From Actinomycetota bacterium (GTDB lineage: Bacteria > Actinomycetota > Actinomycetes > Jiangellales > Jiangellaceae): a stretch of 64,000 nt of DNA. The notes below the pieces were generated by a model. The model ran no database searches. It had not been told where the DNA came from and saw nothing but the letters and a program-made list of their open reading frames with translations. How positions within the stretch are numbered: the first letter of the stretch is position 1; the number at the start of each line of letters is the position of its first letter. The translations under genes and the position numbers were made by a program. Below are positions 36,196 to 64,000 of this stretch, one piece after another. The DNA is taken from NCBI GenBank assembly GCA_046726315.1, contig JBKPAG010000017.1:30890-94889 (forward strand), given 5' to 3'.

Positions 36196-36221
36196 ACGCT
36201 CGTGAATGCATTCACGAGCGT
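36196..36221. promoter_or_regulatory. Perfect 26-bp palindrome, 27 nt upstream of the menJ-like start; candidate operator
   Basis: ACGCTCGTGAATG|CATTCACGAGCGT read directly from the sequence. GC3 in the surrounding frame is low, so the stretch is probably non-coding. Confidence 0.4.
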
Positions 36222-36248
36222 CCAGGGCGACGACGAGGTGCGAGCGGG

Positions 36249-37541: not shown

Positions 37542-37646
37542 TGAGGATGAAACCGTGATCGACTTCACTAGCATGGGCACCCGTGCGCGCACGCCGGTGC
37601 GGTGCGCCACGTGGACCCACTGCTCGAGTGCCGGGGAGGGGAGTGC

Positions 37647-38006: not shown

Positions 38007-38020
38007 GGGCGGATACGGGT

Positions 38021-39408: not shown

Positions 39409-39430
39409 GCGAAAAGGCGAGTGCGACCAG

Positions 39431-40801: not shown

Positions 40802-41501
40802 CGACGGAAACGCGACTGAACGACGTGGCCAGGGACGAGATGCGGCAGATCATCGCCCGCTACCCGCAGCCGCGCTCGGCCCTGCTGCCGATGCTGCATC
40901 TGGTCCAGGCCTACGACGGATACGTGACACCTGCCGGCATCGAGATGTGTGCCGAGGAACTCGGTCTCACCGAGGCGGAGGTGTCGGCCGTGGCGACGTT
41001 CTACACCATGTACAAACGGCACCCGATGGGCAACTACCACATCGGTGTCTGCACGAACACACTGTGCGCGATCATGGGCGGCGATGCGGTGTGGGCCGAG
41101 CTCTCCGAAGCGTTGGGGATCGGCCACGACGAGACCATGGCCGACGGCACGGTCTCGCTCGAGCGGGTCGAGTGCAATGCCGCCTGCGATTACGCGCCCG
41201 TCGTGATGGTCAACTGGGAGTTCATGGACAACCAGACCCCGCAGTCCGCGCTGGAGCTGGTCGAGCAGCTGCGGGCCGGTGCGGAAGTGCATTCCACGCG
41301 TGGTCCACGGATCTGCACCTGGAAGGAGGCCGCCCGGATCATTGCCGGGTTCCCGGACGATCGGGCCCACGAGGGCGTACCGGCCGGCGCTGCCAGCCTG
41401 GCCGGGCTCACCCTCGCCCGCGAACAGGATTGGACTGCTCCAGAGGGCGGAACCCCGGCGATCGAAGCGACCGGCTCAGCCGCAGCGCCGGAGGGTGCCC
41501 G

Positions 41502-41505
<4 letters not shown>
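40798..41505 (+). CDS. nuoE: NADH-quinone oxidoreductase subunit E
   Basis: GTGA overlap with nuo[30 protein letters not shown] (2Fe-2S ligands). Confidence 0.9.
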
Positions 41506-42808
<1,303 letters not shown>

Positions 42809-42812
<4 letters not shown>

Positions 42813-46593: not shown

Positions 46594-46605
46594 CCCCTCG
46601 CAGGT

Positions 46606-47160
46606 ATGCCTAGGTTCTTCGACCCGATTGCGGGCTTCGGGGTGACGTTCCGGACGATGTTCCGCAGGGTCGTCACCGAGCAATATCCCGAGCACCCCCA
46701 CCCGGTCGCCCCGCGGTTCCACGGCCGGCACCAGCTCAACCGGCATCCGGACGGGCTGGAGAAGTGCATCGGCTGCGAATTGTGCGCGTGGGCGTGCCCG
46801 GCCGACGCCATCTACGTGGAGGGCGACTCCAACACTGACGAGCTGCGGTTCTCGCCCGGCGAGCGGTATGGCCGCGTCTACCAGATCAACTATCTGCGCT
46901 GCATCTTTTGTGGCCTGTGCATCGAGGCCTGTCCCACCCGGGCGTTGACAATGACCAACGAGTACGAACTCGCAGACGACACCCGCGAGAAGCTGATCTA
47001 CGAGAAGCAGGATCTGCTCGCCCCCTTGCTGCCGGGGATGGAGGAACCGCCACACCCGATGCGCCTGGGCGACGACGAGCGCGACTACTACCTGCGCTCC
47101 GGTGCGATGTTGCGCGACGACGGCCGTGACCAGCGAGCGGCGGAGGAGGCGGGGCGATGA
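46606..47160 (+). CDS. nuoI: NADH-quinone oxidoreductase subunit I
   Basis: Two 4Fe-4S motifs: [12 protein letters not shown] and [12 protein letters not shown]. Confidence 0.92.
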
Positions 47161-47993
47161 GCGCCGACGTGCTCGCCCAGGCAGTCGAGACCGCGAGTCA
47201 CACCGGTGAGACCGTGCTGTTCTGGGTCATCGCGCCAATCGCTGTGGTGTCCGCGCTCGGGCTGGTCATCGCCCGCAAGGCGGTCCACGGCGCGATGTTC
47301 GTCGCCGTAACCATGATCTGCCTGGCGGTGCTCTACATCGCGCTGGAGGCGTCGTTCCTCGGAGTGGTGCAGGTCGTCGTCTATACCGGCGCGATCATGA
47401 TGCTGTTCCTTTTCGTGATCATGCTGGTCGGCGTCGACACCAGCGACTCCCGGGTCGAGACGATCCGTGGCCAGCGCGTGGCCGCGGTCCTCGCCGGTCT
47501 CGGCTTTGGCGTCCTATTGGTCGCCGTCGCGGCGAGCGCGTTCCTGCCGGCGCCGGCCGGAATGGACTCCGCGGCACCGGAAGGCAATGTCGTCGCGATT
47601 GCCGACCGCATCTTCTTTCGCTATGTGTTTGCCTTCGAAGTCACCAGCGCGCTGCTCATCACTGCTGCAGTGGGCGCGATGGTGCTGACCTATCGCGAAC
47701 GGCTGTTCCGGCGACCAAGCCAGCGTGAACTGTCCGAACGACGGTTCCGGACCGGTGGCGCAGCGGCGTCGCAACTGCCGAGCCCAGGCGTCTACGCCCG
47801 ACACAACGCGGTAGACACGCCGGCACTGCTTCCGGACGGAACCCCCAGCGACCTGTCCGTCTCGAAAGTCCTCGTGGCCCGCGGGACGGTCCGGGTCACT
47901 GACGAACCCGCGGGCGACGTTTCCCGGCTCGAAGCCCAGGTGGAGGAGCTGACCGGCGAACCACTCGAGGACGCAGAAGGTGAGCGGCCATGA
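47157..47993 (+). CDS. nuoJ: NADH-quinone oxidoreductase subunit J, with a C-terminal extension
   Basis: ATGA overlap with nuo[23 protein letters not shown]. Confidence 0.88.
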
Positions 47994-48289
47994 GTCCCAC
48001 GCCCTACCTGGTGCTCTCCGCAATCCTGTTCACGATCGGCGGCGTCGGCGTGCTCCTCCGCCGCAACGCGCTGATCGCGTTCATGAGCGTCGAGCTCATG
48101 CTCAACGCCTGCAACCTGGCCTTCGTCACGTTCGCCCGCATGCATGGCGACATCGACGGCCAGATCGTGGCCTTCTTCGTGATGGTTGTCGCCGCCGCCG
48201 AAGTGGTCGTAGGCCTCGCGATCATCGTCACCATCTTCCGAACCCGCAGGTCCGCGTCGGTCGACGACGCGAGCCTGCTCAAGCTCTGA
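47990..48289 (+). CDS. nuoK: NADH-quinone oxidoreductase subunit K
   Basis: ATGA overlap with nuoJ. 99 aa with [13 protein letters not shown] and [13 protein letters not shown]. Confidence 0.9.
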
Positions 48290-48324
48290 CGTGGTGAGGA
48301 CTACCAGATGACTGGAGCGACCAG

Positions 48325-50259
48325 ATGATCGTCGCGTCCGCGCTCGTCGGCCAGACGACTGAGGAGACCGCCACCCTTGCCGAAGGCGTGTTTTCCTCGA
48401 CATGGCTGCTCATCGTGCTCCCACTGCTGGGCGCTGCGGTCCTGCTGCTCGGGGGGCGCCGGCTCAACCGGATCGCGCCGGTGCTTGGCTGTGTCGCGCC
48501 GGTCGCCGCATTCGTCGTGGCGGCCGTGCTGTTCATTGCGATGGTGGGCCGCGCGCCTGAGGAGCGGGCCATCTCCGTGCCGCTGTACGACTTCTTCACG
48601 GTCGGCGATTACAACGTGGCGGTCGGGCTGCTCCTCGACCAGCTGTCGATGGCGTTCACCCTTCTGATCACCGGCGTCGGCTCGATCATCCACATCTACT
48701 CGATCGGCTACATGGGGCACGACGAGAACCGGCAGCGGTTCTTCGGCTACATGAACCTGTTCGTCGCCGCGATGCTGCTGTTGGTCCTCGCCGACGACTA
48801 CCTGATCCTCTATGTGGGATGGGAAGGCGTCGGCCTGGCGTCCTACCTGCTGATCGGGTTCTGGCAGCACAAGGACTCAGCGGCCGTCGCCGCCAAGAAG
48901 GCCTTCGTGGTCAACCGAGTCGGCGACCTGGGGATGTCGCTCGCGGTCATGTCGATGGTCGTGGTCTTCGGCACGACTGCGTTCGCGGCCGTCTTCCCGG
49001 CGGCGGCCGACGCGCCGAAAGACTGGCTGATCGCGATCGGGCTCCTGCTTCTCCTCGGAGCTTGTGGGAAGTCCGCGCAGTTCCCGCTCCAGTCGTGGTT
49101 GTTGGACGCGATGGAGGGCCCGACCCCCGTTTCGGCCCTCATCCACGCGGCGACCATGGTCACTGCGGGCGTCTACCTGGTCGTCCGGTCCGCGGCGATC
49201 TATAACGGCAACGAGATTGCCCAGACCGCTGTCGTGATCGTCGGCACGATCACGCTGCTGATGGGTGCGATCATCGGGTGCGCCAAGGACGACATCAAGA
49301 AGGCGCTGGCCGGGTCGACGATGAGCCAGATCGGCTACATGATGCTTGCCGCCGGTCTCGGGCCTGCTGGCTACGCGTTAGCGATCTTCCATCTGCTGAC
49401 CCATGGCTTCTTCAAGGCCGACCTGTTCTTGGGCGCCGGCTCGGTCATGCATGGCATGAACGACGAGGTCGACATGCGCCGCTATGGTGCGTTGCGCGCC
49501 GCGATGCCCGTGACCTTCCTGACGTTCGCTGCCGGCTATCTGGCGATCATCGGAATCCCGCCGTTTGCCGGGTACTTCTCCAAGGACCCGATCATCGAGA
49601 CCGCCTTCGCGAACAACTTCGTCGCCGGGTTCTGCGCCCTGGCCGGCGCCGGCATCACCGCGTTCTACATGACCAGGGTGATGCTGATGACGTTCGTCGG
49701 GGCGAAACGATGGGCCGCGGACGCTCACCCGCACGAGTCGCCCCGGGTCATGACCGTGCCGCTCATAATCCTTGGTGCGCTGTCGACAATCGGCGGTGTG
49801 GTGCTGCTCTACGCCGGGGGCGGCATCGTCGAGTGGCTGGAGCCGGTGACCGGTGAAGAGCATGTCGAGCTGGGCATTCCGGTCTGGGCCATGACCTTGA
49901 TCATTCTTGCGGTGGTCGGCGTCGGCGTCGCGGTCGCCTGGCAGATCTTCGGCCGGCAGGCGGTGCCGGTCACCCAGCCGGCCGGTTCGACCGTCACGGT
50001 CGCCGCCCGCCGGGACCTTTACGGCGACGCGGTCAATGAAGCCGTGTTCATGCGACCCGGGCAGTACCTGACCCGGTCGCTGGTCTACGTGGACAACCGC
50101 GGAATCGATGGCGCGGTGGTCGGTACCGCATCCGGGGTTGGCCAGTTCTCGACCCGACTGCGGCGATGGCAAACCGGGTTCGTCCGCTCGTACGCCCTGT
50201 CGATGCTGGCGGGAGCGGCCATCGTCGTCGTGGTCATGCTGGTGGTGAGGCTGCCGTGA
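48325..50259 (+). CDS. nuoL: NADH-quinone oxidoreductase subunit L
   Basis: [18 protein letters not shown] and [38 protein letters not shown]. Confidence 0.92.
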
Positions 50260-51782
50260 CGTTCCCCTGGCTCACCACCCTGATTGCCGTTCCGCTGCTC
50301 GGCGCCGCGCTCACGGCGCTGGTGCCACGCGGGCTCGAGCTGGCGGCGAAGAGGCTCGCCCTGTTCGTCGGTGTGGTTACAGCAATCCTCACCCTGATCG
50401 CAGCGGTGGCGTTCGTCGCCGACGGAGCGACCGAGCAATTCGTCGAACGGTATGAATGGGTCGGCTCGCTCGGTGTCTTCTACGCCGTCGGTGCCGATGG
50501 CATCTCGCTCTCGCTCATCGGGTTGACAGCCGTCGTCACACCAATCGTGCTGCTGGCGATGTGGCGCGAGGCCGAGGCCGAACACCGCAATCCCAAGCCG
50601 TTCTTCGCCCTCATGCTGTTGCTCGAGGCGATGATCATCGGTACCTTCGCTGCCGAGGACGTGCTGCTCTTCTACGTCCTGTTCGAAGCCATGTTGGTGC
50701 CTATGTACTTCCTCATCGGCCTGTACGGCGGCCCGCAACGTCGGTACGCGGCAGTGAAGTTCCTGCTTTACAACCTGCTCGGCGGGCTCATCATGCTGGC
50801 GGCGGTGATCGGGCTCTACGTGCAGTCGGTCGACGCGGGACAGCCCTCGTTCCTGCTCTCCGACCTGGTCGCGCTGGACGTTCCCGTCGAAGTCCAGCGG
50901 TGGCTCTTCCTCGGGTTCATGTTCGCATTCGCGATCAAGGCGCCGCTGTGGCCGTTCCATACCTGGCTGCCGGACGCCGCTGCCGAGGCGACGCCGGCAA
51001 ACGCCGCATACCTGTCCGGCGTCATGGACAAGGTCGGGACGTTCGGCATGATCGCGCTGGTCCTTCCGCTGTTCCCCGATGCCTCGCGCGAGTTCGCGCC
51101 GGCCATCGTGGTACTTGCAGTGATCAGCATCCTCTACGGTGCTCTGCTGGCCGTCGCGCAGACGGACATGAAACGTCTGATCGCCTACACCTCGATCTCG
51201 CATTTCGGTTTCATCGTGATGGGGATCTTCGCGCTGACCAGCCAGGGCGCCGCCGGTTCGACGCTCTACATGGTCAATCACGGGCTGTCGACGGTGGCCC
51301 TGTTCGTCATCGTCGGCTTCATGATCGTCCGACGTGGCTCGAGGCTGGTGGCCGACTACGGCGGCGCGGCGCAACCAGCGCCAATTCTGGCCGGCTCGCT
51401 GTTGTTCGCAGGCCTGTCCGCCCTCGCGCTTCCGGGCCTCGCCACCTTCGTCAGTGAGTTCCTGGTGCTGGTGGGCACGTACAGCCGGTACCGGATCGCA
51501 GCAGTCGTCGCCACGGTGGGGATCATCCTCGCCGCGCTCTACATCCTGCTGTTCTACCAGCGCACGATGACCGGCCCGGCCCGCGAGGCGACTCGGAACT
51601 TCGTCGACCTGAGGCGGCGCGAGTTGCTGGTCGTCGCGCCGCTCGTGGCGCTGCTCCTCGCGGTCGGGTTCTTCCCCAAGCCGGTACTCGACGTCATCGA
51701 CGACGGCGTCCAACCGACACTCGCCGAGGTCGGCGTCAGCGATCCCGAGCCGATCACTCCCGCGGCGGAAGGGAGCGAGTGA
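50256..51782 (+). CDS. nuoM: NADH-quinone oxidoreductase subunit M
   Basis: GTGA overlap with nuo[40 protein letters not shown]. Confidence 0.92.
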
Positions 51783-51783
51783 G

Positions 51784-53310
51784 GTGAACGCGCCCACTAT
51801 CGAGTACGCCGAACTCCTGCCGATGCTCATTGTCTTCGGCGCGGCGGTCGTCGGCGTCTTGATCGAGGCGTTCGCGCCTCGCCGACCACGGCATCTGCTG
51901 CAGGTGGGACTTGCGCTCGCTGCGCTGGTCGCGGCGTTCGTCGCGGTGATCCGGCTGGCCGGAACGTCGATCATCGGTGCGGCGGGCTCGGTGGCGATCG
52001 ACGGGCCGGCGTTGTTCCTGCAAGGCGCGATACTGGTGTTTTCTGTGATCAGCGTGCTGTTCTTCGCCGAACGCAGGCTGGAAGGCGGGGGCGACGCGTT
52101 TGCACCGTCGGCATCGGCGCTGCCTGGCGGCGCGGCGGAACGGACCCTGGTTGCCGAAGGTGTCCTGCAGACCGAGGTCTACCCGCTGATGATGTTCGCC
52201 ATCGGCGGGATGCTGTTGTTCCCGGCCGCCAACGATCTGCTGACATTGTTCGTCGCGCTGGAGGTGCTCTCGCTCCCGCTGTACCTGCTGGCAGGAATGG
52301 CCCGCCGCCGACGGCTACTGTCGCAGGAGGCTGCGCTGAAGTACTTCCTACTCGGTGCCTTCTCGTCAGCGTTCTTCCTCTTTGGCGCCGCGCTGATCTA
52401 CGGGTTTGCGGGCTCCGTCCGGCTGTCCGACATCGACGAGGCGCTGGGCGCCAGGGTGGGCCAGGAAGGCCTGCTGCTCGCCGGAGTCGGCCTGATAGCG
52501 GTCGGTCTGCTGTTCAAGGTGAGCGCAGCTCCGTTCCACTCGTGGACCCCTGATGTGTACCAAGGCGCGCCGACACCGGTCACCGGCTTCATGGCCGCCT
52601 GCACGAAGATTGCCGCGTTCGGAGCGATGCTGCGGATCTTCTACGTGTCGTTCGGCGCGGTGAGCAGCGACTGGCAGCCGATGTTCTGGGCAGTGGCGAT
52701 CCTCACCATGATGGTCGGCGTCGTTGTTGCACTGACCCAAACCGACGTCAAGCGTATGTTGGCGTACTCCTCGATCGCCCACGCCGGGTTCATTTTCACG
52801 GGGATGGTGGCTGCCGACGCGATCGGCACGGCCAGCGTGCTGTTCTATCTGGTGGTCTACGGCTTCACCACGGTCGGAGCATTCGCCGTCGTGACCCTCG
52901 TGCGCGACTCCGCGGGGGAGGCCACGCACCTGGCGAAGTGGGCCGGTCTCGGCAAGCGTTCGCCGGTGGTCGCTGCGACGTTCGCGCTGTTCCTGCTCGC
53001 CTTCGCCGGCATCCCACTCACCAGCGGCTTCGTCGGCAAGCTCGCCGTCTTCTCGGCGGCGATCGACGCCGGAGCGGTGGCGCTGGTCATCGTCGGTCTG
53101 GTCGCGAGTGCGATTGCCGCGTTCTTCTACATCCGGGTCATCGTCCTGATGTTCTTCACCGAACCGGCCGCCGACGGCCCAACGGTTGCCGTGCCGAGCA
53201 CGTGGACTACCGTCGGTATCGGCGTGGGCGTCGCAGCGACGGTCATCCTTGGCATCCTGCCCGGGCCGCTGCTCGAGCTTGCTCAGCAGGCAGCGGTGTT
53301 TGTTCGCTGA
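51784..53310 (+). CDS. nuoN: NADH-quinone oxidoreductase subunit N
   Basis: GTG sits 1 nt after the nuoM stop. LEVLSLPLYLLAG, FKVSAAPFHSWTPDVYQGAPTPVT, AYSSIAHAGF. Confidence 0.92.
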   Translation: MNAPTIEYAELLPMLIVFGAAVVGVLIEAFAPRRPRHLLQVGLALAALVAAFVAVIRLAGTSIIGAAGSVAIDGPALFLQGAILVFSVISVLFFAERRLEGGGDAFAPSASALPGGAAERTLVAEGVLQTEVYPLMMFAIGGMLLFPAANDLLTLFVALEVLSLPLYLLAGMARRRRLLSQEAALKYFLLGAFSSAFFLFGAALIYGFAGSVRLSDIDEALGARVGQEGLLLAGVGLIAVGLLFKVSAAPFHSWTPDVYQGAPTPVTGFMAACTKIAAFGAMLRIFYVSFGAVSSDWQPMFWAVAILTMMVGVVVALTQTDVKRMLAYSSIAHAGFIFTGMVAADAIGTASVLFYLVVYGFTTVGAFAVVTLVRDSAGEATHLAKWAGLGKRSPVVAATFALFLLAFAGIPLTSGFVGKLAVFSAAIDAGAVALVIVGLVASAIAAFFYIRVIVLMFFTEPAADGPTVAVPSTWTTVGIGVGVAATVILGILPGPLLELAQQAAVFVR

Positions 53311-53342: not shown

Positions 53343-54341
53343 GTGGCGACCTCTCCGGTCCCCGCGATTCCCTCGGTTGGCCCGGCATTCGAGGCGTCGG
53401 TCGCGGCTGGACTCGAGGAGGTGGAGGAACGGCTGGCCGAGGCCGTCAAGTCCGACGACGCGATGCTCGCCGCCGCGTCGCGGCATCTGGTCGCGGCCGG
53501 AGGCAAACGGTTCCGGCCGTTGCTCGCTTTGACGGCCGGTCACTTCGGCGACCCGGATGCACCTGGCGTTGTGCGCGCGGCCGTCGTTGTCGAGCTCACC
53601 CACGTCGCTACGCTCTACCACGACGACGTGATGGACGAGGCCGCCCTGCGGCGAGGGGCGCCCAGCGCGAACGCCCTGTGGGGCAACACCGTCGCGATCC
53701 TCACGGGGGACTTTTTGTTCGCGCGGGCGTCGGACATCGCAGCAGACCTGGGTACCGAGTCGGTCCGGATTCAGTCGAGGACGTTCGAGCGGCTGGTGCA
53801 CGGTCAGCTGAGGGAGACGTTGGGTCCGAAGGAAGACGAGGATCCGGTCGCCCACTACCTGGGTGTGCTGTCGGACAAGACGGCGTCCCTCATCGCGACC
53901 TCGGCGCGGCTCGGGGCATTGCATGCGGGAGCGCCGAATGGAACCGTCGATGTGCTCGCCCGATTCGGCGAACGCATCGGCATGGCCTTCCAGCTCGCCG
54001 ATGACGTCCTCGACATCGCCAGCGAGTCCACGGTGTTGGGTAAGGCTTCGGGCACCGACCTGCGCGAAGGGATCGCGACGCTTCCCGTCCTGTACGCCAG
54101 ACAGTCGACCGACCCGGCGGATGCCAGGCTCCGGGCCCTGATCGGCGGCCCGCTGAACGACGAAGCCGTCCGCGCGGAGGCCGTGCAGCTGCTGCGTGCA
54201 CACCCCGCGATGGCCCGCAGCCGAGCCGTCGTCCGCCGCTATGCCGAAGATGCCCGCGAGGTCCTCACGCCGCTGCCCGATATCCCCGCCCGCCGCGCCC
54301 TCGAAGCCCTGTGCACCTCAGTCGTCACCCGCACCGCCTGA
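53343..54341 (+). CDS. Polyprenyl diphosphate synthase (menaquinone side-chain synthase, GrcC1/HepT-like)
   Basis: GGKRFRP, first DDxxD in LYHDDVMDEA, second in QLADDVLD. Confidence 0.85.
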   Translation: MATSPVPAIPSVGPAFEASVAAGLEEVEERLAEAVKSDDAMLAAASRHLVAAGGKRFRPLLALTAGHFGDPDAPGVVRAAVVVELTHVATLYHDDVMDEAALRRGAPSANALWGNTVAILTGDFLFARASDIAADLGTESVRIQSRTFERLVHGQLRETLGPKEDEDPVAHYLGVLSDKTASLIATSARLGALHAGAPNGTVDVLARFGERIGMAFQLADDVLDIASESTVLGKASGTDLREGIATLPVLYARQSTDPADARLRALIGGPLNDEAVRAEAVQLLRAHPAMARSRAVVRRYAEDAREVLTPLPDIPARRALEALCTSVVTRTA

Positions 54342-54355: not shown

Positions 54356-55420
54356 TCAGTTGACGGTCCAGGGATCGCTGCCGGCGAGGAGGCCGGCCAG
54401 GTCGCCGGGACCTTGGGTGTCGACTGCGCGATCCAGCTGGGCCGTCATGAGGTCGCCGTATGTCGCTCGGTCGACCTGCCGGAAGATGCCGATCGCCGAC
54501 CGGGCGAGGGAGCCGGGGTCGGCCAACCGGGACAACGCGAACGCCTGTGACGGGTCGGCGGCGTGCGCGTCATGGACGATCACCGCGGGGTCGTCGCCGC
54601 CACAGACCTCCAGGCCACCTGTCGCGGGGTCTCGGCGCACACCCTGGTCGAGATCGGCGCCGAAACGCACCGGCTGGCCGTGTTCGAGCCGGATCAGCAC
54701 GTCGTCACGAGTGTCTGCGCTCTTGAGCAGGTCAAATGCGCCGTCGTTAAAGATGTTGCAGTTCTGGTAGATCTCCACCAGCGATGTGCCGCGGTGTGCG
54801 GCGGCCGCACGCAGCACCGACGTCAGGTGCGCCCGGTCGGAATCGATGCTCCGGGCGACGAAGGTGGCTTCTGCACCCAATGCCAGGGATACCGGGTTGA
54901 ACGGAGCGTCCAGCGAGCCCATCGGGGTCGACTTGGTGATCTTGCCGAGCTCCGACGTCGGCGAATATTGACCCTTGGTGAGCCCGTAGATGCGGTTGTT
55001 GAACAGCAGGATCGTCAGGTTGACATTGCGCCGCAGCGCGTGGATGAGATGGTTGCCGCCGATCGACAGCGCGTCGCCGTCACCGGTGACCACCCACACC
55101 GACAGGTCCGGTCGCGACGCAGCGAGCCCGGTGGCTATCGCCGGCGCACGTCCGTGGATGGAGTGCATCCCGTACGTGTCCAAGTAGTACGGGAACCGCG
55201 ACGAGCACCCGATGCCCGAGATGAACACGATGTTCTCGCGCCGCAGCCCGAGCTCTGGCAGGAACCCCTGAACCGTGGCGAGGATCGCGTAGTCGCCGCA
55301 GCCCGGGCACCAGCGGACCTCCTGGTCGCTGGTGAAGGTCTTCTTGGTTTCGGGGACGTCGGTGATAGGCACGCCCTGCAGGCCGGCTGGCAATCCCAGC
55401 TCGACCGTGGTGTCAGACAT
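54356..55420 (-). CDS. korB: 2-oxoglutarate:ferredoxin oxidoreductase, beta subunit (ThDP-binding)
   Basis: WCPGCGDYAIL, GIGCSSRFPYY, TGDGDALSIGGNH. ATG 55420 (MSDTTVELG) overlaps the korA end by 8 nt. Confidence 0.85.
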   Translation of the reverse strand: MSDTTVELGLPAGLQGVPITDVPETKKTFTSDQEVRWCPGCGDYAILATVQGFLPELGLRRENIVFISGIGCSSRFPYYLDTYGMHSIHGRAPAIATGLAASRPDLSVWVVTGDGDALSIGGNHLIHALRRNVNLTILLFNNRIYGLTKGQYSPTSELGKITKSTPMGSLDAPFNPVSLALGAEATFVARSIDSDRAHLTSVLRAAAAHRGTSLVEIYQNCNIFNDGAFDLLKSADTRDDVLIRLEHGQPVRFGADLDQGVRRDPATGGLEVCGGDDPAVIVHDAHAADPSQAFALSRLADPGSLARSAIGIFRQVDRATYGDLMTAQLDRAVDTQGPGDLAGLLAGSDPWTVN

Positions 55421-57278
55421 CCGCAATCGCCTTCTCGATGACGTCGGCGAGCTCCTCAGCCTTGAACGGTAGCCCGCGGACGCGGTTGTAACTCATGACG
55501 TCGACCAGGAACCGGCCGCGAAGCAACAGCGCGAGCTGACCGAGGTTCATCTCTGGCACCAATACCTGGTCATACGACCGCAGAACCTCACCGGTGTTGG
55601 CTGGGAACGGGTTGAGGTGGCGCAGATGGGCCTGGGCAACTGGCTGGCCGGCCTTGCGGATCCGTCTCACCGCCGCGCCGATGGGGCCGTAGGTGGAGCC
55701 CCAGCCCAGCACCAATAGCCGCGCGTCGCCGGTGGGGTCGTCGACGGCGAGAGGTCTGATGCTTGCGGCGATACCGTCGATCTTGGCTTGCCGCAGCCGC
55801 ACCATCCGGTCGTGGTTGTCCGGGTCGTAGGAGATGTCGCCTGACCCATCGGCCTTCTCGATGCCGCCGATACGGTGCTCGAGACCTGCGGTACCCGGAA
55901 TTGCCCACGGGCGGGCGAGCGTCGATGGATCGCGCAGGTAGGGCCAGAACTCCGTGGGTCCGGTGCCGTTCCCGTGGTTCAGGGCGGTTGCGAAGCCGGG
56001 GTCGATGACCGGCAGATCGGACACGGCCGGGATCCGCCACGGCTCGGCGCCGTTGGCCAGGTTGCCGTCGGAGAGCAGCAGCACAGGCGTCCGGTAAGTC
56101 ACCGCGATTCGGGCGGCCTCCAAGGCGGCGTCGAAGCAGTCGCCGGGCGAGCAGGGTGCGACGATCGGCACCGGCGCTTCGCTGTTACGGCCGAACATCG
56201 CCTGCAACAGGTCGGCCTGCTCGGTCTTCGTGGGCAGGCCGGTGGACGGGCCGCCGCGCTGGATGTCGCAGACGATCAACGGCAGCTCGAGCGAGACTGC
56301 CAGGCCGATGGTTTCCGACTTGAGCGCGACACCGGGGCCCGACGTCGACGTGACGCCAAGTGCGCCGCCGAATGCCGCGCCGAGCGCTGCACCGATCCCG
56401 GCGATCTCGTCCTCGGCCTGGAACGTCCGCACCCCGAACCGCTTGTGCTTGGACAGCTCGTGCAGGATGTCCGACGCCGGCGTGATCGGGTACGAGCCCA
56501 GGAACAGCGGGAGCCCACTGCGCTGGGACGCGGCGATCAGACCGTAGGACAGGGCCAGGTTGCCGGTGATGTTCCGGTACCTGCCAGGCGGCAGCGGCGC
56601 CGGTTTGACCTCGTACGAGACCGCGAAGTCCTCGGTGGTCTCGCCATAGTTCCAGCCTGCCCTGAACGCGGTGATGTTGGCGTCGCGGATCGCGGGGTGC
56701 TTGGCGAACTTCCGCTCCAGAAACCGCTCGGTGCCCTCGGTGGGCCGGCCGTACATCCACGACAGCAGGCCCAGCGCGAACATGTTCTTGGAACGCCCGG
56801 CCTCCTTGCGGGTGAGACCGAAGTCCTTCAGCGCGGTCATGGTCATGCCGGTGAGGTCGAGCGCGTGGACCTTGTATGCGTCGAGACTGCCGTCCTCGAG
56901 TGGGTTGGCTTGGTAGCCGACCTTCCTCAGTGCGCGGTCGGTGAAGTCGGAGTTGTCGACGATCACCATTGCGCCGCGGGGGAGATCGTCGATGTTGGCC
57001 TTGAGCGCGGCTGGGTTCATCGCAACGAGCACGTTCGGTGCGTCGCCTGGGGTCAGGATGTCGTGGTCGGCGAAGTGCAGCTGGAAGCTCGACACCCCGG
57101 GCAGAGTCCCCGCTGGAGCGCGGATCTCAGCCGGGAAGTTCGGCAGCGTGGACAGGTCGTTGCCGAAAGAGGCCGTCTCGGCGGTGAACCTGTCTCCGGT
57201 CAGCTGCATCCCGTCACCGGAGTCGCCTGCGAATCGGATGATCACACGGTCGAGCTCCCGGACCTGCTTTCCGGTCAC
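55413..57278 (-). CDS. korA: 2-oxoglutarate:ferredoxin oxidoreductase, alpha subunit
   Basis: [59 protein letters not shown] start at 57278. Confidence 0.85.
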
Positions 57279-57546
57279 CGGATGTTGACGCCTCCCCTAG
57301 GTGGCACGTCTTGGCGCGTGGCCGTCGTTAGCCATGCGATGCGTCGTGCGCCTCCTGAATCAATGCTACGTCCGTCTGACCTTGTTCCCGTGCGGCGACT
57401 CGGGAATGTGCACGTGCGTTACCCGAACGTCACCCCTCGTAGATGGTTTCGCACTCGCCGCCCCGGTGGGTTGGCCCGGCGGTCCCCGACCACGGGTAGC
57501 GTGGTGGGAGCCGACTCGCACAGTGTGGCGCCGGGAGGAGGCGGCC

Positions 57547-57918
57547 GTGGAAGCGTACCTCAGTCCGTACGTCGTCCTTGCGGTCGTCGCGCTCGCCGGT
57601 GCCGGGTTCGTCGCTCTCGCATACGGCGCCAACCGCTTACTCGCTCCCCGCAAGCCGACTCGCGAGAAGTTGCTCACCTACGAGTCCGGGGTCGACCCAG
57701 TGGGCGAGGGCTGGGCGCACACGCATATCCGCTACTACGTCTACGCCTTCCTCTATGTGGTCTTCGCTGTCGACGCCGTCTACCTGTTCCCGTGGGCGAC
57801 GGTGTTCGCCGAACCGAATTTCGGGGCCACGACGCTGATCGAGATGTTCGTCTTTCTCGGCCTGTTGGCAACCGGGATCCTGTACGCCGTCCGGCGCGGA
57901 GTCCTGACGTGGCAGTAA
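57547..57918 (+). CDS. nuoA2: Complex I subunit A paralog (second nuo locus)
   Basis: GTG 57547 follows [20 protein letters not shown] and [15 protein letters not shown]. Confidence 0.85.
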
Positions 57919-57929
57919 CCGAGCTAGGG

Positions 57930-58532
57930 ATGCCTGGCCATGGGGCCCCCGACGACCTGGGCGCCGGTCATGTCGGGCTGGCGCAACGGCTGGTACCCGA
58001 ACCGGTCCGGATCGTGCTCAACTGGGGCCGCCGCTATTCGCTGTGGGTATTCAACTTTGGTCTCGCGTGCTGCGCCATCGAGTTCATCGCGGCGTCTATG
58101 GCCCGGCACGATTTCATCCGGTTGGGTGTGATCCCGTTCGCTCCCGGTCCCCGGCAGGCCGATCTGATGGTCGTGTCCGGGACGGTCACCGACAAGATGG
58201 CGCCGGCGGTCCGACGGCTCTACGAGCAGATACCCGAACCGAAATACGTCATCTCTTTCGGCGCGTGTTCGAACTCCGGTGGCCCGTACTGGGACTCGTA
58301 CTCGGTGACCAAGGGCGTCGACCAGGTGGTGCCCGTCGACGTGTACGTCCCCGGCTGCCCGCCGCGTCCGGAGGCCCTGCTGCAGGGGATTCTCAAGCTG
58401 CAGGAGAAAATCGCCGCGGAGAACCTTGCCGAGCGATATCCGGATCCGGCTGCCGTTCGCCGCGAGGCGGCCCCGGGAACGCTGACCCGCCCGTTGGTGT
58501 CGCCTGCTGCACCGGAGCGAGAACGACCGTGA
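57930..58532 (+). CDS. nuoB2: Complex I subunit B paralog
   Basis: [21 protein letters not shown] and PGCPPRPE, so the N2 cluster cysteines are retained. Confidence 0.88.
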
Positions 58533-59125
58533 CCGAGCAGAGCGAAGACTGGGCGGTCCAGCTCGCGCACGCCGCCGGTGAAGGTGCCGAGGTTGGTGAC
58601 GCCTTCGGGGTGCCCGTATTCGACGTCGCCGCGGAACGATGGCTGGCGACGCTGGAGGCCGCTCGCGACTCGGGGCTGACCTTCTTCGACTGGCTGTCCG
58701 CCGTCGATGAGTTGGACGAGGGCTTCTCGGTGGTCGTCCACGTCGCGGATCTGACCCGGCATCCGGTCCTGCACCTGCTGGTGCGGACGCGTATACCGCG
58801 GGACACACCCGTACTTCCGTCGGCGACAGGCGTGTACCGCGGCGCGGCGTGGCACGAGCGTGAGACGCACGAGATGTTCGGCGTCGAGTTCGACGGTCAT
58901 CCTGGCCTCGACCCGCTGCTGTTGCCCGACGGGTTCGATGGCCATCCGCTGCGGAAGGAGTTCGTGCTGGCCGCGCGCGCCGCCAAGCCGTGGCCCGGCG
59001 CCAAGGAGCCAGGCGAAGGCGGTGCGGCTGCGGCCGCCCCGTCCCGTCGGCGGATGCTGCCGCCGGGGGTGCCAGATGCGTCCTGGGGGCCTCATCCGCC
59101 CGGCGACGAAGGTGCGCAAGCGTGA
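58529..59125 (+). CDS. nuoC2: Complex I subunit C paralog (C domain only, not fused to D)
   Basis: GTGA overlap with nuoB2. [18 protein letters not shown] and HPLRKEF, with a Pro/Ala-rich tail. Its stop overlaps the nuoH2 start. Confidence 0.85.
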
Positions 59126-60075
59126 TCGACGTTCTCGAGGCACTCTTTCGAGTTGTCGCCGTCGTCGCAGCCTTCTTGTTGCTGCCTCTGCTCGTGGGGC
59201 AGACCGAGCACAAGGTGATGGCGCACATGCAGGGCCGGGTTGGGCCGATGTACGCCGGCGGGTTTCACGGCTGGGCCCAGTTGATCGCCGACGGGGTCAA
59301 GTTCGCCCAGAAGGAAGACGTGCTTCCGACCCGCGCCGACCCGGCAATATTCCGGCTCGCCCCCGCCGTCGCGATGGTTCCGTACCTGGTCGCGTTGGCG
59401 TTCATACCGCTGGCGCCGGGCTGGGTGGGCGTCGACGTCGATGTGGGCCTGCTCGTGGTCCTCGCTGTCATGGGCGTCGGCGTATTGGGCTCGTTGATGG
59501 GGGGCTGGGCCAGCGGCAACAAGTACTCGTTGCTTGGCGGCCTACGCACGGCCGCACAGCTCATGGCGTACGAGCTGCCGTTCGTGCTGACCGCCGCCTC
59601 GGTGGCCATGGCCGCCGGAACACTGTCCCTGCCCGGCATCGTGGAGGCGTGGCAGCCGTGGTGGCTGGTGTGGCAAGGGATCGGTGCCGTTGTGTTCTTC
59701 GTGGCCGGCCTGGCGGAGTTGCAACGGCCGCCCTTCGACATGCCGGTCGCGGACTCCGAGATCATCTTCGGCGCATTCACCGAGTACACGGGCTTGCGGT
59801 TCGCATTCTTCCTGCTGGCCGAGTACGCCGGGATTGTTCTTCTCAGCGGGTTGACCGCGGTGCTGTTTCTGGGCGGCTGGCACGGACCGTTCGACGACGC
59901 GCTCGGCTGGCTGTGGACCCTCATCAAGACCTTCGCCCTCGCCGTCGTAGTCATCTGGCTGCGGGTTGCGTACCCCCGCCTGCGCGAGGACCAGCTGCAG
60001 CGCCTCGCCTGGCAGTGGCTGGTACCTCTAGCACTCATGCAACTGGCATTGACCGGAGTCGTCGCGCTGAGCTGA
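59122..60075 (+). CDS. nuoH2: Complex I subunit H paralog
   Basis: GTGA overlap with nuoC2. EHKVMAHMQGRVGPMYAGGFHGWAQLIADGVKF and ELQRPPFDMPVADSEIIFG. Confidence 0.88.
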   Translation: MIDVLEALFRVVAVVAAFLLLPLLVGQTEHKVMAHMQGRVGPMYAGGFHGWAQLIADGVKFAQKEDVLPTRADPAIFRLAPAVAMVPYLVALAFIPLAPGWVGVDVDVGLLVVLAVMGVGVLGSLMGGWASGNKYSLLGGLRTAAQLMAYELPFVLTAASVAMAAGTLSLPGIVEAWQPWWLVWQGIGAVVFFVAGLAELQRPPFDMPVADSEIIFGAFTEYTGLRFAFFLLAEYAGIVLLSGLTAVLFLGGWHGPFDDALGWLWTLIKTFALAVVVIWLRVAYPRLREDQLQRLAWQWLVPLALMQLALTGVVALS

Positions 60076-60077
60076 GG

Positions 60078-60175
60078 GGTCGACGGTCGAATCAGCACTC
60101 CATCGTCAGCGAACCCCCAGCCAGGCCGCCAACTTTGCGCCGGCAGCTGATCAGGCTAACCTCGGTCGACGGTCG
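60078..60175. repeat. 12-nt direct repeat GGTCGACGGTCG x2, 86 bp apart, in the nuoH2-nuoI2 spacer
   Basis: Copies at 60078..60089 and 60164..60175, read directly from the sequence. Confidence 0.4.
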
Positions 60176-60209
60176 CCTGCAGCGGCCACGGATCGATTGG
60201 CAGAAGACG

Positions 60210-60461
60210 ATGCGAACAGAAGGCAGACCCCGGTACGCCGTCCGCGAGCCGTCTCCAGACGACACCAGCGTGTTCGGGCTCGCAGCCGTGTGGACCGAGC
60301 TCGACGCTCCGATGCCACCGAAACGGCGGCCGTCTCACCGTGATGGGCGTCGGGGCCGCTTGCCGACGGCGGCGATGCCGGTTGGCGTCGTCGCTGGACT
60401 GGCAGCCGCGGTGTTGCTCGCCCTGGCAATGTTTGTGTTGTTGCTGAACGTCATCCGCTAG
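60210..60461 (+). CDS. Candidate 83-aa tail-anchored small membrane protein inserted between nuoH2 and nuoI2
   Basis: MRTEGRPRYAVREPSPDDTSVFGLAAVWTELDAPMPPKRRPSHRDGRRGRLPTAAMPVGVVAGLAAAVLLALAMFVLLLNVIR, with a single C-terminal TM helix. GC3 is noticeably lower than in the neighbours and no clear Shine-Dalgarno is present, so coding status is uncertain. Confidence 0.3.
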   Translation: MRTEGRPRYAVREPSPDDTSVFGLAAVWTELDAPMPPKRRPSHRDGRRGRLPTAAMPVGVVAGLAAAVLLALAMFVLLLNVIR

Positions 60462-60538
60462 GCCACGCCTCACGCCGATCGGGTGCAGCGATAGATCGCA
60501 GGCGTGGAGGCTCGAATTGACGGGCAGAAGCGACCAAG

Positions 60539-61069
60539 ATGGGTGGCATGGCTCGTCTCGGGTTGGCGACTGGGCTGGCCACGACGTTCCGGCGTCTGAC
60601 CAGGCGCGCGGTAACCGCGCAATACCCCGACGCCGCGCCGCAGCTGCCGCCCCGCAGCCGGGGCGTCATAGCGCTCACCGAAGAGAACTGCACCGTCTGC
60701 ATGCTCTGCGCCCGGGAATGCCCGGACTGGTGCATCTACATCGACTCGCACAAGGAGGAGCTACCCCCGGCCACCGAAGGCGGCCGGACCCGGACCCGGA
60801 ACGTCCTCGACCGATTCGCGATCGACTTCTCTCTCTGCATGTACTGCAGCATCTGTATCGAGGTGTGCCCATTCGACGCGCTGCACTGGTCCCCAGAGTT
60901 CGAATACGCAGAACTTGACATCCGCGATCTCGTGCACGAGCGAGACCGGCTGCGGGAATGGATGTGGACCGTCCCGCCGCCGCCAGCGCTGGACGGAAAG
61001 GCAGCTGAACCCAAGGAGGTCGAGACCGCCCGCCAGTCCGTGGCCATGGGTCCCGGGGCCGCCGGGTGA
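60539..61069 (+). CDS. nuoI2: Complex I subunit I paralog
   Basis: [12 protein letters not shown] and [12 protein letters not shown] (two 4Fe-4S motifs). The start is ATG 60539 or 60548. Confidence 0.88.
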
Positions 61070-61581
61070 ACGGTGTCGAGCTGGCGTTCGTGCTGCTGGG
61101 CGCGGTCGCCGTCGGGTCGGGCGCTCTCGTTGTCACGACCACCAGGATCGTGCATGCCGCACTCTGGCTAGCGGTGAGTCTCGGCGCGGTGGCCGGGCTG
61201 TTCCTCTTGATGACGGCCGAGCTGATGGCCTGGGTTCAGGTCCTGATCTACGTCGGAGCCGTCGTCGTGCTGGTGCTGTTCGCGCTCATGCTGACCCGCG
61301 CTCCGATCGGGCCGGCTCCGGCGGCCCCACCAGCCCGGGTCGCCCTCGCCGCCACGGTGGCAGCGGCCACCGCGGTGGTGCTGACAGGCGCGTTGCTCGC
61401 GGGGATGGGCGGAGCCGTGATCGAGTTCGAACACGTAAGCGTGGGTGACGGTCGGGCTGTCGGAACCGCGCTGTTCACAGCATGGGTGCTGCCGTTCGAG
61501 GTTCTGTCGGTACTGCTGCTTGCCGCTCTGGTCGGCGCCATCGTTCTGTCCCGAGGTCGAGGCCGCGAGGACGGGCGATGA
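61066..61581 (+). CDS. nuoJ2: Complex I subunit J paralog
   Basis: GTGA overlap with nuoI2. [20 protein letters not shown]. Confidence 0.85.
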
Positions 61582-61928
61582 GGCTGGCGTTCCCACTTGC
61601 GGTGTCTGCGCTGCTGTTCTCGCTCGGTGTTTTCGGTGTCCTGGCCCGGCGTAACGCCGTACTGGTGCTCATGTCGGTCGAGTTGATGCTCAACGGCGTC
61701 AACGTCAACCTCGTTGCATTCGACGCGTGGTGGGCGGATGCCCTGCACGCGGGCCAAGTGCTGACGCTGTTCGTCATCACCATCGCTGCGGCAGAGGTCG
61801 GTGTCGGGCTGGCCATCGTGCTGCTCATCTTCCGCAACCGCGGTACATCCGACCTGGATGATCTGGGGCTGCTCGACGAGCGGACCGAGTCGGTAGACGA
61901 GGACACCGGGGTGGAGGCGGCTCGGTGA
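61578..61928 (+). CDS. nuoK2: Complex I subunit K paralog, with an acidic C-terminal extension
   Basis: ATGA overlap with nuoJ2. [16 protein letters not shown] and [13 protein letters not shown]. Confidence 0.85.
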
Positions 61929-63790
61929 TCGTCGTGCCGGTGATCGTGTTGGTCCCGTTCGTCGCGGCCATCGTCGGCCTGGCGCTCGGAGGGAACCGAA
62001 CCGCAGCGCGGCGGGTGGCGGTGATCGGCACCGGCCTTGCGCTCGTCCTGTCCGTGTACGCTGCCGTCGCTGTTTGGGTCGGAGGACCGTCGGCCGACGT
62101 GTGGGGAACGGTCCCGACGGGCTGGATCCCGATCATCGTCGGCACCCGCGCCGACGGGCTGGGCGTCACTGTGGGCATCATGGTGACCGCCGTCGCGTTC
62201 GCCGTCCAGCTGTACTCGACGGCCTACATGCGACCGCAGCCGCGATACGGCTCGTACGCCGCACTGGTCTCGCTGTTCACCGCCGCGATGCTGCTGGTCG
62301 TCTTCGCTAACGACCTGGTCGTGCTGCTCGTCGGCTGGGAGGTCATGGGCATCTGCTCGGCGCTGCTGATCGGGCAGCACTGGGAGCTGCCGGAGGCCAG
62401 GAATGCGGCGGTCAAGGCGTTCGTGGTCACCCGACTCGGCGACGTCGGGATGCTCGCCGGGATCCTGGTCCTGGCGGATCTGGCAGGCTCGTTCCAGATC
62501 TCTACGCTGCAGCGGTCGGCGCAGGCGTCTCCGACCCTGACCATCGGGCTGGTGCTGCTGCTCTGCGGCGTTGTCGGCAAGTCGGCCCAGGTTCCGCTGC
62601 ATGTCTGGCTGCCCGACGCCATGGCTGGTCCGACGCCGGTGTCGGCGCTGATCCACGCGGCCACCATGGTGGCTGCCGGGGTGTTCCTGGTGGCCCGGCT
62701 CGAGTCGGTGTTCCTGCTGTCCCCAGTTGCGCTCGCCGTCCTGGCAGTGGTCGCGGCGGTGACCATGGCGCTCGCCGCGCTGGCGGCGCTCGCGCAGGAC
62801 GATTACAAGCGGGTTCTCGCGTGGTCCACGTCGAGCCAACTTGCGTACATGCTCGGGGCGCTGGCGGTGGGCGGATACTCCGCCGGATTGTTCCACCTGC
62901 TCAGCCATGCCGCATTCAAGGCCCTGCTGTTCCTCGGCGCCGGTGCGATCGCGCACGCGGTCGGCACCACCATGTTGTCCGGAATGGGTGGCCTGCGGCG
63001 GTCGATGCCGTTCACCTACCTGGTGAGCACGCTCGGGTTGGCTGCGCTGATGGGCCTGCCGCCGCTGGGCGGTTTCTTCTCCAAGGAGTCGGTACTGGGC
63101 GCCGCCGAGGATGCCGCGCTCGGTGGTGGGCTGGTGCCGGCGTGGGCGGCGTGGCTGGTGCTGCTGAGCGGGCTGTTCACGGTCCTGGTCACCGCTGCAT
63201 ACGTGACCAGAACCTGGCTGCTTGCATTCCGCGGCCCTGCTCGATCCGCTTCGGCCACCGCACACGATCCGCCGGAACCCATGCGTATTTCGCTGGTCAT
63301 GCTGGCGGTGCCAACGGTCTTGCTCGCCGTGCTCGCCTTCATGCCGTCCGTCGTCGCAACGATGCTCAACCCGGGCGTCGGAGTGGTGGCCGAGCCGGAA
63401 GGCACCTCGGTAAACCCGGAGACCGCCGTGCTGTCGCTCATGCTGGTGGGGATCGGAGCCCTGGCGGCGTTCGCGCAGTGGCAACGGTTGCGCGGCCGGG
63501 ATCCAGCTTTGGCCCTGGGCGCTGCACGCCCGCTCCTGCTCGACGGCTTCGGCGTCGACCGGTTCTACGACGCCGCGATTGTTCGACCCGCCACCGCGCT
63601 GTCTCGGCTGGTCGTCGCGGGAGACCGGGACGTCGTGCACGCATACGTGCGGGGAACGGGTGGAGCGGTTCGGGCCCTCGGTCGGGTCCCGCAAGCAGCC
63701 CAGGCGGGGAGGGTGCAGTTCTATGTTGCCGCCGGGCTGGCGTTCGTCGTCGTCCTCGCGCTCGCGGGAGCTGGGGCGGCGTTGTGGTGA
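61925..63790 (+). CDS. nuoL2: Complex I subunit L paralog
   Basis: GTGA overlap with nuoK2. [19 protein letters not shown] and [38 protein letters not shown]. Confidence 0.88.
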
Positions 63791-64000
63791 CCGGTCAGCT
63801 ACTCCTTCACGTGGCGCTCGGGGTGCCACTCGTGGCGTGTCTGGGCCTTGCGTTGTTGCCGCGGCGGGCCGGCGACCGGTTGGCCCCAGGCGTCGGGCTG
63901 TTCGCGTCGGGCACGGCCCTTGTTGCGCTGCTGACAGCGGCCGTTCTGGTCGGTCGCGACGAGGGCGGGCAGTTCCATCTGGTCACCGACACGTCGTGGG
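63787..64000 (+). CDS. nuoM2: Complex I subunit M paralog, 5' part (runs off the right edge)
   Basis: GTGA overlap with nuoL2. The open frame [27 protein letters not shown]...GQFHLVTDTSW runs to the window end and looks like a NuoM N-terminus. It is absent from the ORF track because no stop falls in the window. Confidence 0.7.
   Translation, partial: MTGQLLLHVALGVPLVACLGLALLPRRAGDRLAPGVGLFASGTALVALLTAAVLVGRDEGGQFHLVTDTSW

Follow-up and report, generated by a model that had tools for sequence, protein, structure and literature searches.

Complex I-type enzymes that lack the NADH-oxidising N-module form a widespread class of eleven subunits (PMC3144371, PMC11238625), and enzymes of this class have also been reported in actinobacteria (PMC3144371). 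Examples are the NUO11 enzymes of Desulfitobacterium (nuoABCDHIJKLMN), Chlorobi and Bacillus cereus, which have no NuoE, NuoF or NuoG and for some of which ferredoxin or flavodoxin has been proposed as the electron donor (PMC3144371, PMC11238625). The NDH-1 complex of cyanobacteria and plastids, a ferredoxin:plastoquinone oxidoreductase, likewise has no N-module, is encoded by genes that are distributed over several loci, and has ferredoxin as its proposed donor. Closest to the case described here is a second nuo set of Streptomyces (SCO4599-SCO4608 in S. coelicolor: nuoA2, nuoB2, SCO4601 and nuoH2 to nuoN2), of which nuoA2, nuoB2 and nuoH2 to nuoN2 are transcribed as one operon, with nuoD2 located apart (PMC3765725, PMC8388888). 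The SCO4599-4608 proteins have been detected in proteomes (PMC9739823), and NuoH2 is among the most conserved membrane proteins of actinomycetes (PMC4852450). Here we describe the analysis of a 64,000-nucleotide stretch of DNA, further called the window, from a Jiangellaceae bacterium (Actinomycetota; assembly GCA_046726315.1, contig JBKPAG010000017.1, positions 30,890 to 94,889), in which a second nuo set without genes for NuoD and the N-module (nuo2) is located only 4 kb from a complete complex I operon (nuo1, also called operon 1). This locus is not a new gene set but represents, in Jiangellaceae, the known actinomycete set of the SCO4599-4608 type. The most probable explanation, to which we assign a probability of about 0.72, is that it encodes an eleven-subunit complex I-type enzyme without an N-module, for which the NuoD subunit is supplied in trans by a conserved orphan gene.

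The nuo2 locus and its conservation

Pfam calls and tblastn searches agree with a sequence-only reading of this DNA, according to which a second complex I-like set without D, E, F and G lies beside korAB. The genes are all on the forward strand and start with nuoA2 (57547-57918, 123 amino acids; Oxidored_q4, E = 2e-30), nuoB2 (57930-58532, 200 amino acids; Oxidored_q6), which encodes the carrier of cluster N2, nuoC2 (58529-59125, 198 amino acids; Complex1_30kDa only) and nuoH2 (59122-60075, 317 amino acids; NADHdh, E = 1e-100), the product of which aligns with E. coli NuoH over its full length. The start codon of nuoB2 is the ATG at 57930, position 57915 reading GTA. Beyond a gap of 463 bp (between 60075 and 60539) follow nuoI2 (60539-61069, 176 amino acids), with two Fer4 motifs for clusters N6a and N6b, nuoJ2 (61066-61581, 171 amino acids; Oxidored_q3, with an IYVGA motif), nuoK2 (61578-61928, 116 amino acids; Oxidored_q2), nuoL2 (61925-63790, 621 amino acids; Proton_antipo_N and Proton_antipo_M) and the first 71 codons of nuoM2 (63787-64000), which runs off the window edge. 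Overlaps of 4 nucleotides (GTGA or ATGA) occur at six junctions, i.e. B2/C2, C2/H2, I2/J2, J2/K2, K2/L2 and L2/M2, the last one being GTGA. The stand-alone C2 of 198 amino acids, its 4-nucleotide overlap with H2 and the distance of 268 bp to korA, all mentioned in the earlier reading, can be read in the sequence. A second NuoD, NuoE, NuoF or NuoG was not found in the window by tblastn with NuoC1, NuoD1, NuoE1, NuoF1, NuoG1 and D2-type NuoD queries.

A scan of species-representative genomes with an alignment of C2 homologues gave at least 583 relatives. The best 80 of these, together with two metagenome loci, were mapped with the window proteins. Genes in the order A2-B2-C2-H2-I2-J2-K2-L2-M2-N2 are found in Jiangellaceae, Streptomyces (about 35 loci), Kitasatospora, Embleya, Actinomadura, Spirillospora, Actinoallomurus, Nonomuraea, Actinopolymorpha and others, and a NuoD, NuoE, NuoF or NuoG homologue was not detected within 10 kb on either side in any of the 82 mapped loci. 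Two relatives (loci L001 and L003), with identities of 92-96% for the individual proteins, extend past the point where the window ends, and both contain M2 and N2 in full. In L001, M2 (510 amino acids, Proton_antipo_M) is followed by N2 (504 amino acids), an M48/HtpX-type peptidase and a guanylate cyclase, and neither L001 nor L003 has a nuoD2, nuoE, nuoF, nuoG or ferredoxin gene 3' of N2. A D or EFG gene just downstream of the set, which the earlier reading had named as a refuting result, is thus not seen in these relatives. The best matches of NuoC2 itself, at no more than 92% identity, come from metagenomes and metagenome-assembled genomes (MAGs), several of them named Jiangellaceae bacterium. 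The exact sequence of NuoL2 (with V or M as first residue) matched no record.

The similarity to Streptomyces nuo2, which the earlier reading had pointed out, is confirmed by SCO4599-4608. Gene order is shared, and identities are 58-89% per subunit. In Streptomyces loci the window nuo2 proteins are the best-scoring queries, at 47-89% identity, against 31-52% to their own operon 1 paralogues, in agreement with orthology to the Streptomyces copies. The C2 stop overlaps the H2 start as in the window, korAB lies upstream on the opposite strand, an M48/HtpX peptidase (SCO4609 is HtpX; PMC4852450) is found 3' of N2 as in L001, and nuoD2 is elsewhere (PMC3765725, PMC8388888). The two arrangements differ in the distance between korA and nuoA2 (4-5 kb in Streptomyces, 268 bp in the window), in the H2-I2 spacing (about 30 bp against 463 bp with a small open reading frame, ORF, of 83 amino acids), and in C2, which in Streptomyces carries a low-complexity tail of 200-350 amino acids that the 198-residue window protein lacks. 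The short distance of 4 kb between nuo2 and nuo1 is a further difference. This Ala/Pro/Glu-rich tail, seen in Streptomyces and Kitasatospora (L039, L045, L019, L017), has a repeated RRxRSxSEGSASQ motif and a conserved DAPWHHA.PA motif. The C2 gene was left out of the gene lists in PMC3765725 and PMC8388888, yet it is present and conserved in the Streptomyces loci.

Reduced or divided sets also exist. In five Kribbella loci (L013, L035, L036, L038, L065) tblastn detects only nuoB2, nuoC2 and nuoH2, with no A2 or I2 to N2 within 10 kb. The Pfam-scanned ORFs of L013 include acetyltransferase-like and NmrA-like genes between C2 and H2. The Kribbella locus is either what erosion has left of a larger set or a minimal module of B, C and H. 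In other Jiangellaceae (L002, L004, L006) C2 is the first gene of the set, and the 10 kb before it contain neither A2 and B2 nor korAB; L002 has DUF3686/AAA genes upstream of C2, and an ORF of 227 amino acids with coiled-coil and transmembrane segments in the H2-I2 gap.

An orphan nuoD2 in related genomes

To explain the missing D subunit, three options had been put forward: a ferredoxin:menaquinone oxidoreductase that borrows NuoD from the main operon, an alternative set that assembles with NuoD, E, F and G of operon 1, and a D-less architecture. None of these is the best answer, as relatives carry a dedicated orphan nuoD2, described for Streptomyces in PMC3765725 and PMC8388888. This makes both the borrowing of NuoD1 and a D-less enzyme unnecessary.

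The S. coelicolor gene, which we take to be SCO3392 near ftsH, guided a search by synteny; S. coelicolor ftsH was confirmed to be SCO3404. A fragment of E. coli FtsH was used to locate the corresponding region on the Nonomuraea gerenzanensis chromosome in PLSDB, and 50 kb around it was examined. According to tblastn, NuoD-like sequence occurs at exactly two places on this chromosome, with D1 at 1.14 Mb and D2 at 471,028-472,179. The D2 gene (384 amino acids) lies beside folK, folP, folE, ftsH, hpt and tilS, and nuo2 (C2) is at 1.21 Mb of the same chromosome. In Actinopolymorpha rutila, too, nuo2 (L009) and D2 (P0499) are on a single contig, of 6.95 Mb. That a complete chromosome could be searched in a plasmid database is due to a curation error: NZ_LT559118.1 (the 11.85-Mb N. 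gerenzanensis chromosome) and NZ_CP108785.1 (a 5.7-Mb Embleya replicon) are filed there as plasmids.

A HMMER search with NuoD1 against 1.84 billion representatives gave no convincing actinomycete D2 paralogue among the best 150 matches listed, the lowest of which scored 254.9 bits; a local tblastn, run separately, gave Nonomuraea D2 a score of 244 bits against D1. The high-GC candidates P0125, P0139 and P0176 were frameshifted copies of D1, candidate P0215 was rejected by tblastn, and the others belonged to unrelated lineages.

With an alignment of D2 sequences, a metagenome scan yielded more than 580 relatives, of which 80 loci were mapped at 74-88% identity. In all, 82 D2 loci were inspected, with genes of 384-387 amino acids (L083:18029-19183, L164:10001-11164, and L084-L163). 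In none of them is another nuo gene adjacent to D2, and fol/ftsH genes recur nearby wherever the contig is long enough, typically at 1.5-7 kb and on the other strand. The family of the window is represented as well. Locus L125 has a tetranucleotide profile that is as close to the window as those of known Jiangellaceae loci, and proteins 87-99% identical to its D2, several of them annotated as hypothetical protein, come from MAGs that NCBI names Jiangellaceae bacterium; at about 80% identity there are proteins of Jiangellales, Actinopolymorpha, Tenggerimyces and Sphaerisporangium. L164, a Jiangellaceae contig of 151 kb, has a monocistronic D2 flanked on both sides by genes of the opposite strand, with panC upstream and HPPK (folK), FolB, folP, folE and ftsH 6-10 kb downstream. 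Two further Jiangellaceae MAGs have the same immediate flanks, and D2 is monocistronic in all three.

Across actinomycete orders D2 is 74-99% identical. It is only about 33-34% identical to D1 and comes closer to rhizobial NuoD (41-42%), which makes Nuo2 together with D2 look like an old separate lineage rather than a recent duplicate of operon 1. The distance of the nuo2 subunits to their operon 1 paralogues in the window (31-52% identity; 33% for NuoA2 and 52% for NuoB2) is similar to that of D2 (about 33%). Very probably, the D-less appearance of the locus is therefore a matter of gene location and not of a new architecture.

Intact redox and pump residues, and a remodelled acceptor pocket

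Motif conservation was counted over about 70-80 homologues per nuo2 subunit. All 79 homologues of NuoB2 have the N2 ligand motifs ACCAIE and GCPPRP, and the third Cys motif is also conserved. As noted before, NuoI2 of the window has both CxxCxxCxxxCP motifs; the first is kept in all 70 homologues inspected. NuoK2 conserves both membrane glutamates throughout the clade. The window NuoL2 carries GWE, GKSAQ, HxxxHAxFK and FFSKE, and its homologues conserve the Glu of GWE, the Lys of GKSAQ and the Lys of FFSK[DE]. Disabling substitutions, which had been considered as a possible sign of a non-functional set, are therefore not seen in the cluster ligands of B2 and I2 or in the pump residues of K2 and L2.

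The acceptor pocket is different. Throughout the clade NuoH2 has TEHK where canonical enzymes carry ERK, GPMYAG instead of GPNR.G, and a loop PFDMPVADSEIIFG at a site where operon 1 has another 14-residue sequence. In NuoA2, FAVD replaces the canonical FDxE (FDIE in operon 1). The D2 proteins of relatives also deviate, as the canonical set of quinone ligands (His38, Tyr87 and Asp139, Thermus thermophilus numbering) is incomplete. Both His of GPQHPxxHG are retained, but NRHDW, with Trp for Tyr87, occurs in 238 of 240 sequences, GSYPLE[LVI]G has Glu for Asp139, and the C-terminus GD[IV]DK is invariant. Trp at the Tyr87 position is rare among representative NuoDs; a loose motif scan put its frequency at about 3 in 100. 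When engineered, the Tyr87 to Trp replacement severely lowers decylubiquinone (DBQ) reductase activity; Y87W is known to give inhibitor resistance, and it has been reported in the NuoD of piericidin-producing Streptomyces, where it was read as self-resistance (PMC4758237). Since this Trp is universal in D2, that report may have concerned the D2 paralogue, as the present data suggest. Because the pocket residues of D2 changed together with those of H2 and A2, D2 rather than D1 can be argued to be the partner of Nuo2.

NuoC2 has cyanobacterial NdhJ as its best solved-structure match, with similarity ending near residue 149. The remaining C-terminal tail of about 50 residues (...RRRxLPPGVPD..WGP) is invariant in 21 diverse homologues and has no counterpart among the solved structures matched. 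As the NuoC C-terminus touches NuoG in canonical enzymes (PMC3144371), the tail may by analogy be part of a donor-docking surface. Apart from the 83-residue ORF, it is the only element of the locus without a known family.

Family models also place nuo2 at some distance from known groups. NCBIfam scores are below the cut-off for A2 (103.8 against 163), C2 (95.8 against 122.45) and I2 (98.2 against 113.05), and just below it for H2 (304.3 against 305); only B2 of the locus passes, on subfamily models, whereas the orphan D2 reaches 365.9 against a cut-off of 360. The Fpo exception models score far below their cut-offs (FpoD 285/600, FpoH 231/475, FpoC 66/220, FpoI 51/180). With the canonical 14-subunit enzyme, nuo2 shares homologous A, B, C, H, I, J, K, L and M subunits and the same cofactor motifs, but that enzyme has D, E, F and G, sequence identity is only 31-52%, and the pocket and E-channel residues of nuo2 are changed. 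The NUO11 enzymes have in common with nuo2 the subunits B, C and I, seven membrane subunits, the N2 and N6a/b ligands and the pump residues; in NUO11, a single operon has nuoD between C and H, whereas the D of nuo2 relatives is an orphan located hundreds of kb away, with its Trp and Glu replacements as a further difference. NDH-1 resembles nuo2 in the features mentioned at the outset and in NdhJ, the best structural match of C2. However, the Tyr is retained in NdhH, sequences are no more than about 30-40% identical, and D2 scores 303 against a cut-off of 583 for the NdhH model.

Proposed enzyme and electron donor

The locus is made up of two blocks of translationally coupled genes. The first is A2-B2-C2-H2 and the second (small ORF)-I2-J2-K2-L2-M2, N2 being past the window edge, and together they encode ten of the eleven core subunits of a complex I-type enzyme and no N-module. 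The eleventh subunit would be D2, neither borrowed from operon 1 nor dispensable, which would come from the orphan gene in its housekeeping neighbourhood near panC and folK-folB-folP-folE-ftsH and would close the acceptor pocket against B2 and H2. A low-potential carrier, most plausibly ferredoxin, with KorAB as one candidate for its reduction, would hand electrons to NuoI2, from where they would pass via N6a, N6b and N2 in B2 to an acceptor, presumably menaquinone, in the remodelled D2/H2/A2 pocket. Proton translocation would be carried out by the antiporter-like L2, M2 and N2.

Ferredoxin as donor is a reasonable analogy, as it has been proposed for other enzymes without an N-module (PMC11238625). 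The more specific route from KorAB through ferredoxin to Nuo2, suggested by the sequence-only reading, is possible but thinly supported. Among the 63 nuo2 loci with at least 9 kb of flanking sequence, 44 have korA upstream and divergent. Direct adjacency (about 200-600 bp) is, however, restricted to Jiangellaceae and a few MAGs. In the remaining loci with korA, it is separated from nuo2 by 2-8 kb of other genes, usually 2-5 kb, and korA is absent from Kitasatospora- and Streptacidiphilus-type loci. In S. coelicolor the AbrC two-component genes lie in the interval (PMC9739823). Since nuo1, korAB and nuo2 all belong to a syntenic core region, conservation of this neighbourhood is weak evidence for functional coupling. 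The window has no stand-alone ORF with a ferredoxin motif besides NuoI1 and NuoI2, and an FpoF-type or other extra input gene was not found in the locus. Ferredoxin-docking subunits of the NdhS, NdhV or NdhO type were not identified in the locus, although no search was aimed at them. A KorAB/ferredoxin link to Nuo2 is thus weakly indicated.

Weighing the explanations

Several points weigh against an enzyme with D2 supplied in trans. The physical assembly of D2 with Nuo2 is something we infer from sequence, and the presence of nuoD2 in this organism from its occurrence in the family; the Jiangellaceae MAGs traced for D2 and those traced for C2 are different assemblies, and no pair from the same assembly was found. 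The eroded or split sets of Kribbella (B2, C2 and H2 only) and of L002-type Jiangellaceae (no A2 or B2 upstream) do not fit easily, nor do the missing ferredoxin gene and the position of korAB, which in most lineages is only loosely adjacent to nuo2 and in some is not there at all. Finally, quinone reduction is not assured with a D2 that carries the same Trp by which DBQ reductase activity is crippled in the engineered enzyme.

The alternative that survives best, though we consider it improbable, is a hybrid NADH enzyme, in which Nuo2 and D2 form an alternative Q- and P-module that docks NuoE, NuoF and NuoG of operon 1. The product would be another isoenzyme of NADH:menaquinone oxidoreductase, on which inhibitors of the piericidin or rotenone type might have no effect because of the Tyr to Trp replacement. 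Such an arrangement would account for the lack of a donor module or ferredoxin linked to the nuo2 locus, with NuoEFG encoded 12 kb upstream in the window, and it agrees with the conserved tail of C2, given the contact of the canonical NuoC C-terminus with NuoG (PMC3144371), and with Y87W as an inhibitor-resistance replacement seen in piericidin producers (PMC4758237). However, the subunits that would have to dock, C2, I2 and D2, are only 33-45% identical to their operon 1 paralogues and score below or at NCBIfam cut-offs, and eleven-subunit enzymes without an N-module are widespread (PMC3144371, PMC11238625).

It is very unlikely that Nuo2 lacks a dedicated D and uses NuoD1 of the main operon instead. 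NuoD1 is indeed the only NuoD-type gene in the 64-kb window, but a dedicated D2 is conserved across orders, occurs together with nuo2 in both genomes where both could be placed, is present in Jiangellaceae, and has pocket residues that changed in concert with those of H2 and A2. A truly D-less machine, e.g. one in which B2, C2 and H2 close the pocket without a NuoD fold, or a decaying remnant without redox function, is the least likely of these explanations: although 82 loci have no D within 10 kb and Kribbella illustrates that the set can erode, the orphan D2 exists in relatives, all frames are intact and translationally coupled, about 70-80 homologues conserve the motifs for cofactors and proton pumping, transcription and translation are documented for the homologues of Streptomyces, and C2 is maintained while, to our knowledge, NuoC has no role except holding NuoD.

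Thus, an eleven-subunit Nuo2 enzyme completed by the orphan D2 remains the preferred explanation. Whether it would act as a standard quinone reductase is a separate matter. Fixation of the pocket across orders in a state that cripples canonical complex I, with Fe-S ligands and pump residues kept, makes other roles conceivable, and we regard these as a tentative possibility that is rather doubtful than probable. In soil bacteria that encounter compounds of the piericidin type, the enzyme might provide an entry into the respiratory chain that is not sensitive to inhibitors. It might also be a coupling device linked to ferredoxin and perhaps reversible, in which menaquinol and the proton motive force drive ferredoxin reduction to serve KorAB or further enzymes that depend on ferredoxin, or it might use an acceptor other than a quinone.

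The H2-I2 junction and the surroundings of the locus

The gap between H2 and I2, reported as such in the earlier reading, is present but not empty, since it holds a probable gene for a small membrane protein of 83 amino acids (60210-60461, forward strand), also called as an ORF at the matching place in L001. The N-terminal 40 residues are conserved and the C-terminal part is a hydrophobic transmembrane helix. Differences from L001 are distributed over the three codon positions as 22/7/37, which is coding-like, with 12 synonymous against 4 non-synonymous changes in the first 40 codons. There is no Pfam match, and the product could, from its sequence, be a lineage-specific accessory subunit. Just 5' of this ORF is a block of 42 nucleotides (60165-60206, forward strand) that is identical in the window, L001 and L003. 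Its first 12 nucleotides with the preceding G (GGTCGACGGTCG) recur 86 nucleotides upstream, at 60078-60089. The block is possibly a promoter or operator, or the start region of an I2-N2 transcription unit. A search of 57200-60700 gave no Rfam families, the 42-nucleotide block included, and no notable consensus promoters or terminators.

Spacing between H2 and I2 varies by lineage, from about 30 bp in Streptomyces and 463 bp in the window to 1-7 kb in Actinomadura, Actinoallomurus and Nonomuraea, and the nuo2 set probably consists of two transcription units in many lineages because of this variability. The large insertions were considered as a hiding place for a D gene, which could be ruled out; they contain unrelated genes (for a ComEA-like membrane protein, a kinase and others).

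The korAB genes on the reverse strand encode a two-subunit 2-oxoacid:ferredoxin oxidoreductase, with korB (54356-55426; TPP_enzyme_C, E = 6e-30) for the beta, thiamine pyrophosphate-binding subunit and korA (55413-57278; POR, POR_N and PFOR_II) for a fused gamma/alpha subunit. Identity of KorB to the proteins in L001, L003 and L005 is 89-95%. The divergent korA/nuoA2 intergenic region (57279-57546, 268 bp) contains no sigma-70-type consensus promoter, Rex-type operator or Rfam match, and its alignment, conserved only among close relatives, shows no convincing shared operator.

The window has a GC content of about 67.5% over its 64 kb. By Pfam, nuo1 is a complete nuoA-N operon (37602-53310). 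The main complex I operon is bracketed by quinone biosynthesis genes: directly 5' are genes for a UbiE/MenG-type methyltransferase and a FAD-dependent reductase (within 35317-37541), and directly 3' is a polyprenyl synthase gene (53343-54341). Upstream of the reductase gene and nuo1 lies a perfect palindrome, TCGTGAATGCATTCACGA (36200-36217), with two mismatches to the Rex operator consensus. It is the single Rex-type site in the window (36200), where 0.5 would be expected by chance.

Implications

This gene set had already been annotated in Streptomyces, and the locus adds one more example of it; with the orphan D2 the puzzle of a D-less complex I very probably dissolves. A trans-encoded NuoD is known in outline for Streptomyces, and the class of enzymes without an N-module was noted for actinobacteria before (PMC3144371), whereas a functional characterisation of an actinomycete Nuo2 enzyme appears to be absent from the literature. 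The system is widespread, with more than 580 relatives of C2 in species-representative genomes and more than 580 of D2 in metagenome contigs. With D2 as the missing partner, deletion, complexome and activity studies in Streptomyces are straightforward to design. For specialists, the Nuo2/D2 clade deserves attention for its acceptor pocket, which is fixed in a non-canonical form. If one of the non-standard roles should turn out to be true, actinomycetes would possess an enzyme for which the gene of a catalytic subunit is kept permanently apart from the others, in a housekeeping neighbourhood.

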